Source: an uncultured cyanobacterium (lineage in GTDB: Bacteria; Cyanobacteriota; Cyanobacteriia; Pseudanabaenales; Pseudanabaenaceae). Taken from it: 64,000 nt of DNA. Within the stretch, counting starts at the first letter, position 1. Every line of letters begins with the position of its first letter. The stretch covers positions 4,288,001-4,352,000 of the forward strand of contig OY969811.1 in NCBI GenBank assembly GCA_963703315.1, in the 5' to 3' direction. The notes beneath the pieces are model-generated. The model did not search any database, was not told the origin of the DNA, and saw only the letters and a program-made list of their open reading frames with translations. A program made the translations under genes and the position numbers. Below are positions 1 through 64,000 of the stretch, piece by piece.

Positions 1-130
1 GCAGCGACTTCTCTAAAACACCCTCAACCCAAGCAGTCCTAACGTTATTCAGCAGCGCTTTACGATTGCGATACTCGTGCTTCGTTGGAGGAGGAAACTT
101 TACCCGCTCCTCCCATTCGGGCGGCTGGAG
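1..130 (-). CDS. Partial N-terminal region of a probable NACHT/STAND NTPase, continuing in frame after the UGA of the 131..553 ORF and running off the window edge
   Basis: Manual translation of 130->1 gives LQPPEWEERVKFPPPTKHEYRNRKALLNNVRTAWVEGVLEKSL, open with no ATG/GTG/TTG. EYRNRxALLxxVxxxWVxGVLEKSL resembles the segment preceding the P-loop in cyanobacterial NACHT proteins. The NTPase domain itself is outside the window. Confidence 0.6.
87..122 (-). promoter_or_regulatory. Predicted H-type RNA pseudoknot 8 nt downstream of the UGA stop (candidate recoding stimulator)
   Basis: On the minus strand GCCCG (122-118) pairs with CGGGU (106-102), and GGAGGAG (113-107) pairs with CUCCUCC (93-87); the stems are interleaved. 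Confidence 0.45.
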
Positions 131-553
131 TCAGTTAAATGTAACAGGAGCGTTAAAGACTGGATTCTGAAAATTATTTTTTATTTCGTCGGCTAATTTG
201 CTGTAGTTCTGAATTATAGTGGGTTGCCCATTAACAGTCTGTACAGTTGTTTGAATTTTCTGTAATAACTCATGATCAGCTTTCACCACCGCCTCAACTG
301 CCAAAATTGCCTGAGAAACTTCATTATCAGTCTTAGCCACAGATTCTAACTCTGACACCGCCAGTTTAAAATCCGCCGATGGTTCAGCTTGAGCGATCGC
401 CTCAGTCTTAGCCAGTGGCTTTTTCTTCAGCAAATTTACTAAATTACCGACTTGATGACTAACCGCCTCACCGAGCTTGTCCCCAGTCTTTTCAAATGCT
501 TTTTTTAGAATTAACGTCCCAACGGCGATCGCGGCTGTAGTCAGTGGCTCCAT
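131..553 (-). CDS. Small helical protein, NLR-associated effector-like (Bell/HeLo-like), with an N/Q/F-rich C-terminal motif
   Basis: 140 aa. Hydrophobic N-terminal helix MEPLTTAAIAVGTLILKKAFEKTG, helical body, C-terminal KNNFQNPVFNAPVTFN resembling amyloid-signalling tails. GAGAGG RBS-like sequence upstream. Confidence 0.6.
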   Translation of the reverse strand: MEPLTTAAIAVGTLILKKAFEKTGDKLGEAVSHQVGNLVNLLKKKPLAKTEAIAQAEPSADFKLAVSELESVAKTDNEVSQAILAVEAVVKADHELLQKIQTTVQTVNGQPTIIQNYSKLADEIKNNFQNPVFNAPVTFN

Positions 554-705
554 AAAAACCTCTCAATATTTGGTGTTAACGCCTTACTACAAAAATTTTA
601 CCTTGAAATCTTGAAATCATTCTGAGCGATCGCCATTTACTTTTACAGAGATTAAAGAGGCGATCACCCATCAGAGAAATGTGGAATTGAATATGTCTAT
701 CAAGT

Positions 706-1026
706 TCATTCTTCAACAATTGTAACTTGACCTTTACTGGCGGAATCTAGAGCCGCTAAAAGTTTTGATACTAAAGGCTTGAGCGCCGCCAAGCTATTTG
801 ATGGTGCTTGCAAAACCACTACAGCAATATCGAATTGTGGCAAATTCTGTTGAAAAGATAAATTGCGATCAACCGTCACAAAAACATCAAACTCTTCTAC
901 TGCAAGAGCTAAAAGCTTTCCGTTTTTGACTCCTGCCCATCCCATCTGCGGAACTGTTTTTACTTCATAGCCAATAATTTCTCTAGCAAATCGGCGATCG
1001 ATACATTCATCTAAAAGAATCCTCAT
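706..1026 (-). CDS. DUF5615 PIN-like (VapC45-type) toxin
   Basis: MRILLDEC...GW.G.KNG.LL..A...FDVFVTVDRNL..QQNL motif; start trimmed to the ATG at 1026; directly downstream of DUF433. Confidence 0.85.
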   Translation of the reverse strand: MRILLDECIDRRFAREIIGYEVKTVPQMGWAGVKNGKLLALAVEEFDVFVTVDRNLSFQQNLPQFDIAVVVLQAPSNSLAALKPLVSKLLAALDSASKGQVTIVEE

Positions 1027-1027
1027 A

Positions 1028-1246
1028 TTATGCCGCCACACTCAACAAGCTTCTTCCTAACTCTTCTAAAAAGTAAATTACCTGTTCCTTAGTCACAGTT
1101 GGAAAACCATCTAAAAAATCATCAATGGATTCTCCATCCTTGAGATAATCCAAAAGCGTCTGCACGGGAACTCTAGTATTCGCAAATACAGTTGTACCAC
1201 CCATAACATCGGGAGATCTGCTAATAAACTTTGAGTCTCTAAACAT
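1028..1246 (-). CDS. DUF433 family antitoxin
   Basis: ISRSPDVMGGTTVFANTRVPVQTLLDYLKDGESIDDFLDGFPTV is a typical DUF433 sequence; start trimmed to the ATG at 1246. Confidence 0.9.
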   Translation of the reverse strand: MFRDSKFISRSPDVMGGTTVFANTRVPVQTLLDYLKDGESIDDFLDGFPTVTKEQVIYFLEELGRSLLSVAA

Positions 1247-1319
1247 AAATTTGTGATATTTAGATATATTTAATATTTTAGCAACTATTGCTCTAGCGAT
1301 CGCCATCATCAAAAAACAA

Positions 1320-1643
1320 CTAAGCGACTTTAGATAAATCCTTTATTTGAATCTTGATAGAAGCACTTTCTAAACTGCTAAAAGTAAACTCAGTCCTAAA
1401 TCCCAGCTTATCCAACATCGAAAACAGCATATCCAAAGTAAACTTATCAATTTTTCCATTCACAATGTCCGACACACGCGGCTGAGTAACCGCCAACCTT
1501 TCAGCCGCCTCTTTCTGTGTCCAACCTCTATTCTCAATTATGTCTCGAATCATAATCGTCAAGTCAGCCTTCAAAACCGACTTACTAGCGACTTCAGGCT
1601 CCTCGATCGCCTGAAACGGACTTTCGTAAAACTTGATTGCCAT
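1320..1643 (-). CDS. XRE/HTH_37 (HigA2-like) antitoxin or regulator, no adjacent toxin
   Basis: KADLTIMIRDIIENRGWTQKEAAERLAVTQPRVSDIVNGKIDKFTLDML; start trimmed to the ATG at 1643. Confidence 0.85.
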   Translation of the reverse strand: MAIKFYESPFQAIEEPEVASKSVLKADLTIMIRDIIENRGWTQKEAAERLAVTQPRVSDIVNGKIDKFTLDMLFSMLDKLGFRTEFTFSSLESASIKIQIKDLSKVA

Positions 1644-1658
1644 AAATACTAAGCGTTT

Positions 1659-1694
1659 TGTCAAATTATACAAAATTTTATATAATTAGTCAAA
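1659..1694. promoter_or_regulatory. Imperfect inverted repeat, probable autoregulatory operator of the HigA-like gene
   Basis: ttgtcaAATTATAcAAAA/TTTTaTATAATTagtcaa immediately upstream of the start codon. Confidence 0.5.
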
Positions 1695-1777
1695 TAAACA
1701 AAAAGATTTGGAGTACTAAATTTAAGCGATCGCCACATCCATAAACCTATCAACAAACAGCGATCAGCTTTTTAATA

Positions 1778-2173
1778 CTAAGAAACACCTAAAAACTTCC
1801 TAAGTGCATTTTTATATACTTTTGGTAAACGTTTTGAAACTATCCCACCTTGCTGTATTTGCGACAGAATAGTAGGAGAAAAACGGCACTTTGGCATACG
1901 GCTACCCACACAAATTACTCTAGCTAATTGCTCACTATCCATCTCACGAGCATCCAGATAATTTATCACCGACTCACGCTTCACAAAATTAGGCACACCT
2001 TCTGTATTGGGTTGAAGAATACAACTAAGATCAGACTTGGCTCTGCGCGTAGTCACATTCACAAATAAATACTTATCGGGAGCAGTTTCCGCGATCGCAA
2101 TATAAAGGTGTTGATCATTCGGAGGTGTCTCCAACAAAAAAGCATCACCCAAATTCACGTTGATGCTTGTCAT
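1778..2173 (-). CDS. Putative toxin partner of the Panacea antitoxin (PemK/MazF-like fold suspected)
   Basis: Start overlaps the stop of the DUF4065 gene. GDAFLL...HLYIAI...LFVNVTT...SVINY pattern resembles MazF-like barrels. Confidence 0.5.
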   Translation of the reverse strand: MTSINVNLGDAFLLETPPNDQHLYIAIAETAPDKYLFVNVTTRRAKSDLSCILQPNTEGVPNFVKRESVINYLDAREMDSEQLARVICVGSRMPKCRFSPTILSQIQQGGIVSKRLPKVYKNALRKFLGVS

Positions 2174-2733
2174 TACGCACTCAGAACCTTATCTAAATAA
2201 GCCTCTCTAGCCGCCTCTTGTCTTATTGCCGCAATCTCCTCAGTAGTCTTGCCCATAAACCTCAACACATCATCAACCACAATCGGAATACGCGAACCAT
2301 CAGGATCTTTCCATTCAGGTAGATCGTGCGTCCATTCAGCAACGTCAAAGGGATTAAGATGTCCAAAAGTTCGATAAACCTCTTGAATGATTTCCTCTTC
2401 TTCTTCACAAAGATGATCAGTGCTAGGATCTCTTAATAGATAGATATTGTGGTTAACATCACGGATAGAAATAAACTTTTTCCAAAGTGGTAAAGCACCA
2501 TCAACAGACTTCCCCTTAATCAGATCATACACACCACTGAGAACAGGACCATAATCCATTGAGAAATAACAATCGCCAGTAATTGTTTGTTCTATACGTT
2601 CTAAAGCTATGCGATCGGCTATATAAAGCATCTTCAGCAAACCTAGATATTTCATAGGCTTACCGTGTAACTTTAAAAACATTGCTGCGGCTTCAACAGC
2701 TTTTTGAGGATGAAACCGAAATAAAATCGCCAT
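2173..2733 (-). CDS. Panacea (DUF4065/GepA/SocA-like) antitoxin
   Basis: LLKMLYIADR...ITGD.Y.SMDYGPV...VYDLIK...WTHDLPEW motif; start trimmed to the ATG at 2733. Confidence 0.85.
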   Translation of the reverse strand: MAILFRFHPQKAVEAAAMFLKLHGKPMKYLGLLKMLYIADRIALERIEQTITGDCYFSMDYGPVLSGVYDLIKGKSVDGALPLWKKFISIRDVNHNIYLLRDPSTDHLCEEEEEIIQEVYRTFGHLNPFDVAEWTHDLPEWKDPDGSRIPIVVDDVLRFMGKTTEEIAAIRQEAAREAYLDKVLSA

Positions 2734-2896
2734 AACTGGTTTCCTACTCTCAAGGCTCTCAATACTATTATAAAACTTTAACCTTGATAACGATCGCTTT
2801 GAGCATTGCATCGCAGGAGCGCGATCGCTTAAATTTGTCTAGATATCACCATTACTGTTAATCTCTAGTGCAGACGATGATTAACAGGTTTTTTCT

Positions 2897-62956: not shown

Positions 62957-64000
62957 ATGTTTCCCCAAAAATTTCTGACGAGAATGGCACAGATCCATCA
63001 GCTTTCTGCCGATCAGGAAAGTGTATTTCTCTTACGGTTTGGGGAAGATCGCGAAGATCGTGAAGTGGCAAGCTTTCTAGGGATTTCTGAAGAAGCCTAT
63101 CGCAAGCGGATGGGCGAAATTTATCGCAAGTTTGATATTAGTGGCAAAGGTCCGGGGAAAAACAACCGCCTCTTGCATATTTTACAAAATTACTTAGATG
63201 CGGAAACCACTTCCCAGAACGACCAGAACCTGACAAATCCATCATCTAGTGTCAAAATTGCTGACTCAAATATCGATATTGAGGAACTCGTCCAGCAATT
63301 ACGTTACCGCAGCCGCCAAGTCATTCAAGAACGTTGCGCCACAATGCGAGTCTTGGATATGTCGCATCCTATCGGTTTAGAAGAAATCTATACAGGAACC
63401 GATGTCTTAGAAAAAATTACTAGCCGTCGTCGTTTGGGAATTGCCGATCTATTGGCTACCTATCACGGGCGCGATCGCCTCGGCACATCAGCGATCGATG
63501 AAAGCCGCGTTTCGAGTATGGATGCGCTTAGCCGTTATAGCAAATTAATGTTGCTAGGCAAACCAGGGGCAGGTAAAACCACATTATTGAAATATACAGC
63601 CCTAAAATGCTCTCAGGGAGATATTTTTAGTGAGTTAGTGCCAGTTTTTGTGACCTTGCGACAATATGCGGGGGCAGAAGCTCAACCAAATCTCTTAGAT
63701 TATATTTCTCAAGACTTTCGCGCCTATAGCATTGGTGATGAACTAACGGTCAAACAACTGCTCCATCATGGTCGCGCCATTCTATTTCTCGATGGACTGG
63801 ATGAAGTTCGGGAAGATGATTTGCATCGCGTACTGGAAGATTTAAGAAGTTTTTCTGAGCAGTACTATAAAAATCGCTTTGTGATTACCAGTCGCTTGGG
63901 AGCGCAGGAATATGTGTTTGAGAAATTTACGGAAGTTGAGGTAGCGAACTTCCAGCCCTTGCAGATTTCCCATTTTGCTCAGCGTTGGTTTATTGGTAAT
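62957..64000 (+). CDS. HTH-NACHT NTPase (partial, runs off the window; absent from the ORF track)
   Basis: Manual translation MFPQKFL...VASFLGISEEAYRKRMGEIYRKF (LuxR/sigma4-like HTH), RC.TMRVLDM..PI.L..IY, Walker A LLGKPGAGKTT, Walker B FLDGLDEV, sensor VITSR. Confidence 0.88.
   Translation, partial: MFPQKFLTRMAQIHQLSADQESVFLLRFGEDREDREVASFLGISEEAYRKRMGEIYRKFDISGKGPGKNNRLLHILQNYLDAETTSQNDQNLTNPSSSVKIADSNIDIEELVQQLRYRSRQVIQERCATMRVLDMSHPIGLEEIYTGTDVLEKITSRRRLGIADLLATYHGRDRLGTSAIDESRVSSMDALSRYSKLMLLGKPGAGKTTLLKYTALKCSQGDIFSELVPVFVTLRQYAGAEAQPNLLDYISQDFRAYSIGDELTVKQLLHHGRAILFLDGLDEVREDDLHRVLEDLRSFSEQYYKNRFVITSRLGAQEYVFEKFTEVEVANFQPLQISHFAQRWFIGN

Follow-up and report, generated by a model that had tools for sequence, protein, structure and literature searches.

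In the described pairs of Bell-domain proteins and NOD-like receptors (NLRs) linked by a bacterial amyloid signalling sequence (BASS), a helical protein, 120-140 aa long, carries an acidic residue at position 2, opens with a hydrophobic helix and ends in a motif rich in G, N and Q; it is encoded collinearly with, and directly upstream of, a NACHT or NB-ARC NLR in multicellular cyanobacteria, as set out in the available part of the survey by Dyrka et al. (10.1101/2020.01.06.895854). A protein resembling these effectors is encoded at the left edge of the stretch analysed here (the window), the 64,000 nucleotides at positions 4288001-4352000 of a single 4,565,174-bp contig (OY969811.1) from the 99.67% complete genome of an uncultured cyanobacterium of the family Pseudanabaenaceae. 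The closest orthologs of this locus are textbook pairs of the described kind. In the window, the open reading frame (ORF) of the small protein ends in a single TGA and the same frame continues, without a start codon of its own, towards a NACHT NLR; the reading was extended along the contig past the window edge. We consider it likely that the locus is an immune module in which Bell effector and NLR share one frame and the NLR part is reached by programmed stop-codon readthrough.

Viruses of eukaryotes provide the textbook cases of readthrough stimulated by downstream RNA. In phage Qbeta, E. coli ribosomes read the UGA at the end of the coat gene as tryptophan, which yields the minor extended protein A1 with a function of its own. 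A structure that begins 8 nt behind a stop codon lies at the ribosome's mRNA entrance while that stop occupies the A site. According to the available part of the review by Firth and Brierley 2012 (PMC3542737), type II readthrough signals consist of UGA followed by CGG or CUA and a structure that begins some 8 nt past the stop, and the gammaretroviral gag-pol signal of UAG, an 8-nt spacer and a compact pseudoknot. UGA is described as leaky, and as read by tryptophan tRNA, in enterobacteria (PMC7918605, in the part available).

The features of the locus are given below by window coordinates.

134..553, minus strand: Bell-like effector ORF of 140 aa, with its ATG at 553, beginning MEPLTTAAIAVGTLIL
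134..199, minus strand: C-terminal motif region KLADEIKNNFQNPVFNAPVTFN, homologous, by alignment and junction comparison, to the motif repeated on the NLR in two-gene relatives
131..133, minus strand: in-frame TGA followed by C (UGA-C), seen in the sequence and in a re-assembled contig; TGA at 97 of 100 distinct junctions, TAG at 3
1..130, minus strand: start-less continuation of the effector's frame, with the linker LQPPEWEERVKFPPPTKH and then the pre-NACHT helix EYRNRKALLNNVRTAWVEGVLEKSL; 1820 more bases lie beyond the window
123..130, minus strand: 8-nt spacer CUCCAGCC, consensus CUN SAG YC
102..122, minus strand: stem 1, GCCCG (122-118) pairing with CGGGU (106-102), loop AAUGGGAGGAG (117-107)
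87..113, minus strand: proposed stem 2 (pseudoknot), GGAGGAG (113-107) pairing with CUCCUCC (93-87), A-rich connector AAAGUUUC (101-94)
74..265, minus strand: junction cassette unlike that of the closest orthologs, by DNA alignment with one of them (G016); the flanks mostly have 24-30 of 30 bases identical, and the cassette is near-random and gapped

The effector ORF ends in ...FNAPVTFN, followed on the minus strand by TGA at 133-131 and then by C. Behind this stop the frame reads LQPPEWEERVKFPPPTKHEYRNRKALLNNVRTAWVEGVLEKSL up to window base 1 and contains no ATG, GTG or TTG, just as the original prediction, made from the window alone, had described. When the whole genome is read, 650 codons stay open after the TGA, and a canonical start, an ATG, comes only after 65 codons, behind the conserved pre-NACHT helix. 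Public gene calls divide the locus into two genes, one for the 140-aa protein and one for a 585-aa NLR starting at this internal ATG. The authenticity of the TGA, which the original prediction had listed for checking, was borne out by an independently assembled contig from the probable source run, which spans the junction with 0 differences; it derives from the same sample and hence does not represent independent data. Because of this identity an assembly slip at the TGA can be excluded, and a nonsense mutation or sequencing error is ruled out by the re-assembled contig together with the recurrence of the stop elsewhere. Two Logan contigs of relatives (one from a metatranscriptome, one from DNA) extend across the junction as well; none of their listed changes falls at the stop, but 55 differences are unlisted, so that conservation of the TGA is not established there. 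The metatranscriptome contig, from a 92%-identical relative, covers both ORFs, from which neither certain transcription nor translation follows.

Relatives of the 140-aa protein were present in 86 of the 401 genomes of its class. In each of 72 loci retrieved from these genomes the Bell-like ORF was identified with a hidden Markov model; one ORF runs off its contig, which left 71 for use. The junctions behind these ORFs were of two types. In the two-gene type the Bell-like ORF ends in TAA or TAG and the NLR has a separate start and a repeated copy of the motif, whereas in the one-frame type a single stop is followed by a start-less NLR frame with no second motif. As many as 40 of the 71 ORFs ended in TGA, and 30 of these continued in frame, with no further stop or early start, into a P-loop nucleoside triphosphatase (NTPase) of the NACHT or NB-ARC-like kind; another of the 40 (L037) has a one-frame junction, but its frame is lost after 32 codons. 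Continuation without a start was found in none of the ORFs ending in TAA (0 of 21) or TAG (0 of 10). Two of these 31 ORFs are in frame with the NLR, each having an ATG at codon 3 and the repeated motif, and one counted as TAA (L035) is a one-frame junction whose Bell ORF holds an extra internal TAA.

For a larger set, all fetched loci were scanned with a pattern-plus-ORF search that allowed TGA, TAG and TAA and selected by stem geometry. Eleven hits (6 TAA, 3 TAG and 2 TGA) were removed by hand, as they lay on the other strand or elsewhere in the locus and not at the end of a Bell-like ORF. The resulting 100 distinct one-frame junctions come from many genera, a recurrence far beyond chance, and all keep a stop, which was TGA in 97 and TAG in 3; neither TAA nor a sense codon occurred at this position. 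The suspicion that homologs might carry a sense codon here, which the original prediction had named as grounds for giving it up, was thus not borne out. The base following the stop was C in 94 of the 100 junctions, and the first post-stop codon was CTG in 42, CTA in 41, CTC in 5, CCA in 5 and another in 7, CUN accounting for 88. In the genome studied here, TGA terminates 241 of the 1789 open frames of at least 300 codons, and TGA followed by C only 39 of the 1789. This scarcity implies that the stop chosen at the junction is a rare, leaky one. Among the 80 best named relatives, 69 carry the TGA together with the RNA element described below, and 62 of those 69 keep an open in-frame P-loop NTPase. 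The titles of the named relatives include Nostoc, Nodularia, Anabaena, Tolypothrix, Scytonema, Calothrix, Microcystis, Brasilonema, Leptolyngbya, Phormidesmis and Stenomitos, the closest being Pseudanabaena.

A few element-bearing loci are damaged: L182, from a Brasilonema metagenome-assembled genome, where TGA CTG TAG places a second stop two codons on; L037/G340; L035, which is the same as L147/G189; and L209. The kinds of damage comprise a second stop after the TGA, loss of the frame after 30-32 codons and an extra TAA inside the Bell ORF. Such modules seem to turn over quickly.

The frame relationship between the two parts of the locus distinguishes the one-frame junctions sharply from the others. 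The NLR lay in frame 0 with the effector in all 29 one-frame loci (L035 being set aside), whereas in the other 28 loci frames 0, 1 and 2 were found 10, 3 and 15 times, respectively. At the same time, the distance from the stop to the P-loop varies from 48 to 123 codons, and therefore many insertions and deletions must have occurred, all of them preserving the frame; the shared frame is obligatory in this type of junction. Start codons are scarce in the stretch behind the stop. The first in-frame ATG, GTG or TTG came at codons 0-2 in 2 of the 100 junctions, at codons 3-16 in 4, at codons 17-29 in 58, at codons 30-59 in 30 and at codon 60 or later in 4, and in 2 there was none within 130 codons; in 30 junctions it falls behind the conserved FVGR motif. 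An independent start, which had been put forward as a possible refutation, is thus generally unlikely, a candidate codon within 17 codons of the stop being found in only 6 of the 100 junctions.

The start-less stretch is nevertheless coding. Over the 45 codons from EY to the first ATG, comparison with four orthologs gave ratios of synonymous to non-synonymous codons of 9:4, 6:2, 10:2 and 10:3. As the differences are mostly synonymous, the stretch is under purifying selection at the protein level, which agrees with what the original prediction had expected of the downstream frame. Moreover, the one-frame NLRs have no motif copy of their own. The local score between the last 30 residues of the Bell protein and the NLR before the P-loop had a median of 17 (range 13-30, n = 29) in one-frame loci vs 56 (n = 29) in two-gene loci. 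At the locus in the window the stop is followed by the linker LQPPEWEERVKFPPPTKH, so that a motif on both proteins, as expected of a BASS pair, would exist only through readthrough; the other hallmark of such pairs, collinear adjacent Bell and NLR genes, is present here on the same strand with zero spacing. The idea that sensor and effector share one and the same motif fits these observations, given that two-gene relatives have the second copy that one-frame NLRs are without.

A conserved RNA structure 8 nt after the stop, of which the original prediction had said nothing, was found at the junctions. The 31 junctions first collected had a common layout, with TGA CTN SAG YC followed by a GC-rich 5-bp stem enclosing a loop of mostly 8 nt and then by (A/C)AAAGTYAA. 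RNAalifold found stem 1 unaided; three of its five pairs are changed on both sides, in 15, 15 and 3 sequences, and 96.8% of cells are paired, vs at most 46.5% when the partner is slid. The arms vary widely (GCCCG/CGGGU, GCCUG/CAGGU, GUCGG/CCGAC, GUCCG/CGGAC, GGCGG/CCGCC, GUCUC/GGGAC and others) and encode different peptides (SPEQERVK, SSASGSDK, SAGGAPPK), and therefore it is the pairing that is conserved and not the peptide. For both helices together the covariation was 0.334 vs 0.139 when shuffled, with 0 of 500 shuffles as high. No Rfam family matched the junction at E <= 1.

The second helix arose as an idea from the fold of the single locus, which prefers a stem-2-like helix, pairing the loop GGGAGGAG with the downstream stretch CCUCCUCC. 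Throughout the junction set the loop has its complement in a stretch 6-11 nt past stem 1, and the helices vary in sequence. Stem 2 of the locus (GGAGGAG/CUCCUCC) was assigned -13.2 kcal/mol by RNA.duplexfold; elsewhere it takes the forms GAGCUU/AAGCUC, GCAUCU/AGAUGC, CGGGAU/AUCCCG, CGGC/GCCG, GGGGGU/ACCCCC, GCAGGAA/UUCCUGC, AGAGA/UCUCU, CAGGA/UCCUG and GGGA/UCCC. Over 86 combinations, loops with their own downstream partners had a mean of -6.71 kcal/mol, vs -5.27 ± 0.19 kcal/mol with permuted partners (0 of 1000 permutations as low), and in the 57 combinations outside the alignment that had generated the idea the values were -6.45 vs -5.24 ± 0.22 kcal/mol (again 0 of 1000). Stem 2 is thus supported, though not proven, and the element is probably an H-type pseudoknot, with a 5-bp stem 1, a 7-bp stem 2 abutting it and an A-rich connector in the window locus. 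A possible lower stem that pairs the UGA itself (UGACU with AGUYA) has 88% of cells paired and no covariation.

A covariance model of the element (R1) found one site in this genome, the junction itself, at 54 bits. Searched over 151 genomes, it gave 27 matches in 23 genomes, 10 of them training sequences. The stop-structure-NLR architecture was seen in 16 of the 17 new matches (13 with TGA and 3 with TAG), 11 of which follow a second N-terminal family (M..DPLT or MLEPLS); the remaining new match, without this architecture, was weak (E 0.008). R1 also matched 70 of the 80 best named relatives, always at the end of the Bell ORF. In the loci L123-L138 the second N-terminal family consists of small helical proteins of 143-158 aa that start with M.DPLTL or MLEPLS, carry a C-terminal motif of the NVQ..GGQGLQVNDPN.PVIQ type and use the identical stop-plus-structure junction before NB-ARC-like NLRs. 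Five proteins of this family matched no Pfam family above cut-off.

The closest orthologs of the locus have the other type of junction, a fact also absent from the original prediction. The best matches among 61 genomes, G016 and G020, are 80-85% identical over the first 124 residues of the effector, and on the NACHT side the identity is about 86% for the first 285 residues and 66-67% for the complete protein. Both have a junction of the two-gene type, running ...AKLAEKIGLVVQGGKVEIQNFSF, TAA, a further stop three codons on, then an ATG or GTG and NQFGKLAEKIGILVQKGGKV..., and the C-terminal motif of the small protein recurs at the N-terminus of their NLR. Between the matching flanks, a stretch of about 130-190 nt is unrelated. 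As the flanks are similar and the junction is not, the junction has been exchanged as a cassette. This swap amounts to a natural experiment and suggests that the two junction solutions are interchangeable. On balance, although with less assurance than for the module itself, we lean towards a dedicated, portable recoding cassette made up of UGA-CUN, a spacer of 8 nt and a compact pseudoknot of the H type. In filamentous and colonial cyanobacteria it would make bacterial ribosomes read through the stop, in convergence with the signals of retroviruses and alphaviruses, and would have been swapped repeatedly for the two-gene junction. A single frame would then supply a pore-forming free effector plus a rare fusion to the NLR bearing the identical polymerising motif.

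The effector matched no Pfam or NCBIfam family above cut-off. Its hydrophobic N-terminal helix, Glu at position 2 and short length agree with what is expected of Bell domains. All 55 distinct aligned relatives, which were chosen for a start of the form M[ED][PLQ], begin with MEP[LIVM][ST], MDP[ILV][ST] or, in two cases, MEL; an N-terminal 'MEPIS' signature marks Bell/Hell domains in the available part of 10.1101/2024.11.07.622273. In an AlphaFold2 model of low confidence (predicted local distance difference test score, pLDDT, 59.4) residues 6-107 are all-helical and the tail is disordered. Bell domains are expected to form a helical bundle akin to HeLo, MLKL and plant coiled-coil domains. A Foldseek comparison of this low-confidence model with the PDB returned nothing at E <= 0.001, the non-significant rows including the coiled-coil domain of Rx (E 0.47) and MLKL (rank 20). 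The motif region KLADEIKNNFQNPVFNAPVTFN, which has low pLDDT in the model, is by its position a candidate BASS-like, amyloid-type motif.

The suggestion that a pre-NACHT segment and an NTPase lie downstream of the stop proved correct. In the post-stop frame, residues 237-387 of the read-through translation match the NACHT family PF05729 with 46.8 bits (cut-off 26.7), and Walker A (GEPGSGKT) and Walker B (LLLLDGLDE) can be read directly in the translation. The C-terminal approximately 270 residues contain Gly-rich hydrophobic segments and look like several membrane spans; no repeat family was matched in this region. The last 75-80 residues of the NACHT protein (...GRIPCNYAKFLDWASDKLFLQKVGGGYIFIHRSLMEHFAEM; L006:3181-3420, minus strand, outside the window) are conserved. 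In other genomes this C-terminal end (residues ~711-789) is often matched alone, with 46-64% identity, and the preceding Gly-rich region varies, a pattern pointing to a variable membrane insert flanked by conserved NACHT-associated parts. Homologs with the NACHT domain and the membrane tail but with other in-frame N-terminal domains occur in L010, L011 and L013, in L012, L018 and L020, and in L026; judged from motifs alone, these domains are Ser/Thr kinase-like (HRDIKPSN), nucleotide cyclase-like and trypsin-like. All of these fused homologs keep the pre-NACHT segment (Q)EYRNRQ.LL.KV..FW..GVLE.SL, and therefore this segment is translated. A further NACHT-like gene at 63515-64000 (plus strand), which runs past the right edge of the window, matches query residues 228-432 (E 2.7e-8) and has an open frame of 766 aa.

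The locus thus presents a leaky stop in a favourable 3' context, a structure about 8 nt 3' of it and a downstream frame that is coding and depends on the upstream ORF, which are the features by which readthrough signals are recognised. In the mechanism that we propose, a single mRNA would encode the Bell-like effector of 140 aa, which ends in the amyloid-type motif, and most ribosomes would stop at UGA-C and release the free effector. A minority would decode the UGA, most likely with near-cognate Trp-tRNA, aided by the weak UGA-CUN context and the RNA structure 8 nt on, and would produce a 791-residue fusion of effector, motif, linker, NACHT domain and membrane tail. The NLR would sense a trigger and oligomerise, whereupon its clustered N-terminal motifs would template the abundant free effector, and the N-terminal helix of the effector would attack the membrane and cause cell death or abortive infection. 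The readthrough itself, its efficiency and the inserted residue we infer from the sequence; amyloid templating and killing are proposed by analogy with HET-S/NWD2 and Bab/Agp. None of the refuting conditions named with the original prediction that could be examined in silico overturned it, and the original prediction is supported to that extent, its mechanism still having the standing of a proposal. If the proposal is true, the sensor's motif is supplied by translation and not by a second gene copy, which would give a fixed low ratio of sensor to effector, suiting a nucleated all-or-none death switch.

Several observations weigh against this interpretation. Structure-stimulated readthrough is, to our knowledge, not an established mechanism in bacteria. 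The junction sets overlap (genomes with G handles and named loci, at least one locus being the same contig), and because the sequences are related the counts overstate independence. The covariance model was trained on TGA junctions only, the single-sequence fold of the locus is not unusual (z = -0.71), and the gain of stem 2 over permuted partners is about 1.2 kcal/mol, 5 junctions showing little or no pairing; this gain is modest because the loops are all G-rich and the partners all C-rich. In addition, sense-codon, longer relatives in which the 140-aa protein is fused were not found among 1872 candidates at E <= 0.001, which is weak evidence: the working of the fused protein has no natural example, and the absence also fits selection for the stop.

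The most serious alternative, which we regard as unlikely, is that two separate proteins are made: termination at the UGA would be complete, and translation of the NLR might begin anew, either at a non-canonical codon just behind the stop or at a GTG, TTG or ATG further inside. The RNA structure would in that case be an intercistronic device, serving as a coupling or stand-by site, for regulator binding or as a processing or stability signal, and would set the ratio of effector to sensor; we hold this use of the structure to be just as doubtful. The public gene calls, with their two genes, are in line with separate synthesis, and Bell and NLR genes are normally separate and tightly spaced, 57% at <=10 bp and 42% overlapping in the available part of 10.1101/2020.01.06.895854. 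The loops of stem 1 are often purine-rich and Shine-Dalgarno-like, as is GGGAGGAG here, but others (CUUCCGGCU) are not. A GTG stands 3 residues before FVGR in 23 of the 100 junctions, all of one Nostoc-type subfamily, and because of this codon an internal start is possible there; a TTG or GTG directly follows the stop in 2 of 100. These codons count against readthrough as well as for re-initiation. However, the post-stop codon is CUA or CUG in 83 of 100 junctions and is not usable as a general start, and the first start lies behind FVGR in 30 of the 100 and 65 codons in at the window locus. Separate synthesis also leaves unexplained why the frame is shared in 29 of 29 loci vs about one third elsewhere, why no stop interrupts the stretch, why TAA is absent from all 100 junctions and why the rare TGA-C context is used, and an NLR made in this way would be without the motif that the two-gene relatives need.

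Readings other than readthrough and separate initiation are each improbable. That the locus is a decaying pseudogene, or the TGA an error, with its likeness to other loci inherited junk, is very improbable: some one-frame loci are indeed damaged (L037 with its frame lost after 32 codons, L035/L147 with the extra TAA in the Bell ORF, L182 with a second stop) and the closest orthologs have the other junction type, but here both ORFs are intact (140 and 650 codons), substitutions in the start-less part are mostly synonymous, stem 1 and the 7-bp stem 2 are intact, the TGA is in the re-assembled contig, and 62 of the 69 named element loci keep an open in-frame NTPase. Slightly more remote still is the possibility that the UGA encodes selenocysteine or another non-standard residue, with the hairpin as a SECIS-like element. 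In bacteria a selenocysteine insertion sequence (SECIS) has a UGA closely followed by a conserved hairpin with a G in its loop, and the layout here resembles it; ARAGORN even reports a 'tRNA-SeC' in the genome. That 94-nt call (tRNA-SeC(tca), G000:C1:2474203-2474296), however, falls within a long ORF of the other strand, its anticodon and variable-arm stems contain mismatches, and no Rfam tRNA is matched there at E <= 1; it is a false positive, which is relevant when genomes are screened for selenocysteine use. In the 99.67% complete genome selA was not found and the selB and selD matches are below cut-offs, none of the five other element-carrying genomes has selB over cut-off or any selA match, and three junctions have TAG in place of TGA. 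Selenocysteine was accordingly rejected, the machinery having been found in none of the six genomes checked. A -1 or +1 frameshift is excluded, the NLR being in frame 0, and tRNA hopping over the stop was discarded as well, as the pre-stop codon (AAC, TTT, ATT, GTT and others) rarely matches the following CUN.

Upstream of the effector, the following genes were identified by a Pfam scan.

706-1041, minus strand: DUF5615
1028-1312, minus strand: DUF433
1320-1673, minus strand: HTH_37
1778-2173, minus strand: 131-aa ORF with no family, partner of SocA_Panacea
2173-2811, minus strand: SocA_Panacea

The several toxin-antitoxin modules said to adjoin the locus are thus present as toxin-antitoxin-like genes at 706-2811 (minus strand); they lie outside the element and provide context only. 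Such a cluster beside the module would be in keeping with a defence or addiction island. A stretch of approximately 40 nt (window 626-665), some 75-110 nt before the effector ATG, recurs at four other sites of the genome with 84-93% identity and shows a many-fold higher contig depth in all three DNA runs examined; it looks like a small dispersed repeat with a GCGATCGC palindrome.

The words 'stop codon', 'readthrough' and 'read-through' have 0 occurrences in the available text of the two BASS papers (10.1101/2020.01.06.895854 and 10.1101/2024.11.07.622273). By search count, 'readthrough' and 'in-frame stop codon' are equally absent from the bNACHT preprint and from two eLife papers dealing with such conflict systems. 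A survey of in-frame stops in prokaryotes (PMC7918605) makes no mention, in its available part, of cyanobacteria, NACHT, NB-ARC, hairpins or pseudoknots. In the literature searched, most subscription journals and supplements lying outside it, there was no description of a Bell-NLR readthrough junction or of structure-stimulated readthrough in bacteria. The method of Dyrka et al. would miss the one-frame type because, in the available description, it requires the motif on both proteins (10.1101/2020.01.06.895854), and the pair tables of that preprint may list some one-frame loci as unpaired Bell genes. In the survey of 71 ORFs, 31 cyanobacterial Bell-like genes have a one-frame junction, all of which motif-pair searches would miss, and gene callers start such NLRs at an internal codon, as with the 585-aa protein called 65 codons past the stop here. 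Such loci can be re-annotated with the help of R1 and the junction pattern. If the portable cassette is real, it would represent the first case, among cellular genes of bacteria, of a conserved readthrough signal that works through RNA structure and without selenocysteine, and its 100 natural variants would make a tractable system for studying the competition of mRNA structure with release factor 2 (RF2). The interpretation of bacterial NLR and amyloid-signalling modules would change as well.

The fungal pair HET-S/NWD2 served as a plain-pair comparison system, its order being akin to membrane-targeting helical domain, NTPase and sensor. The UGA readthrough of Qbeta depends on context alone, and we know of no conserved downstream pseudoknot there; the gene concerned is, moreover, a phage gene and not a cellular one. 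Viral readthrough signals of eukaryotes, as far as the available part of PMC3542737 describes them, are similar to the junction in UGA-CUN, the 8-nt spacer with conserved bases and the compact, GC-rich, probable H-type pseudoknot, as well as in yielding much short and little extended product, as proposed here. They differ in that they act on eukaryotic ribosomes and eukaryotic release factor 1 (eRF1), whereas the cyanobacterial junctions belong to chromosomal genes of bacteria, in which UGA is read by RF2, and their function is inferred from sequence only. Among defence systems, Bab/Agp (BASS11) of E. coli ECOR25 shares with the locus a small Bell-type helical effector whose conserved N-terminal helix starts MEP.. 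and whose C-terminal amyloid motif the sensor templates in antiphage death, but consists of two genes with the motif on each, has a sensor that is not an NLR and involves no recoding (both according to the available part of 10.1101/2024.11.07.622273). Compared with the Bell/BASS pairs of cyanobacteria, the NLR in the 100 junctions has neither a motif copy nor a start and shares the effector's frame, separated from it by a single leaky stop and a conserved RNA structure. In Avast2 and bNACHT02/11/23 a Bell/MEPIS-type domain is fused to the NLR in the same order as in the putative readthrough product (available part of 10.1101/2024.11.07.622273); those proteins are plain fusions, whereas the single frame here would be the source of the fusion and of the free effector alike.

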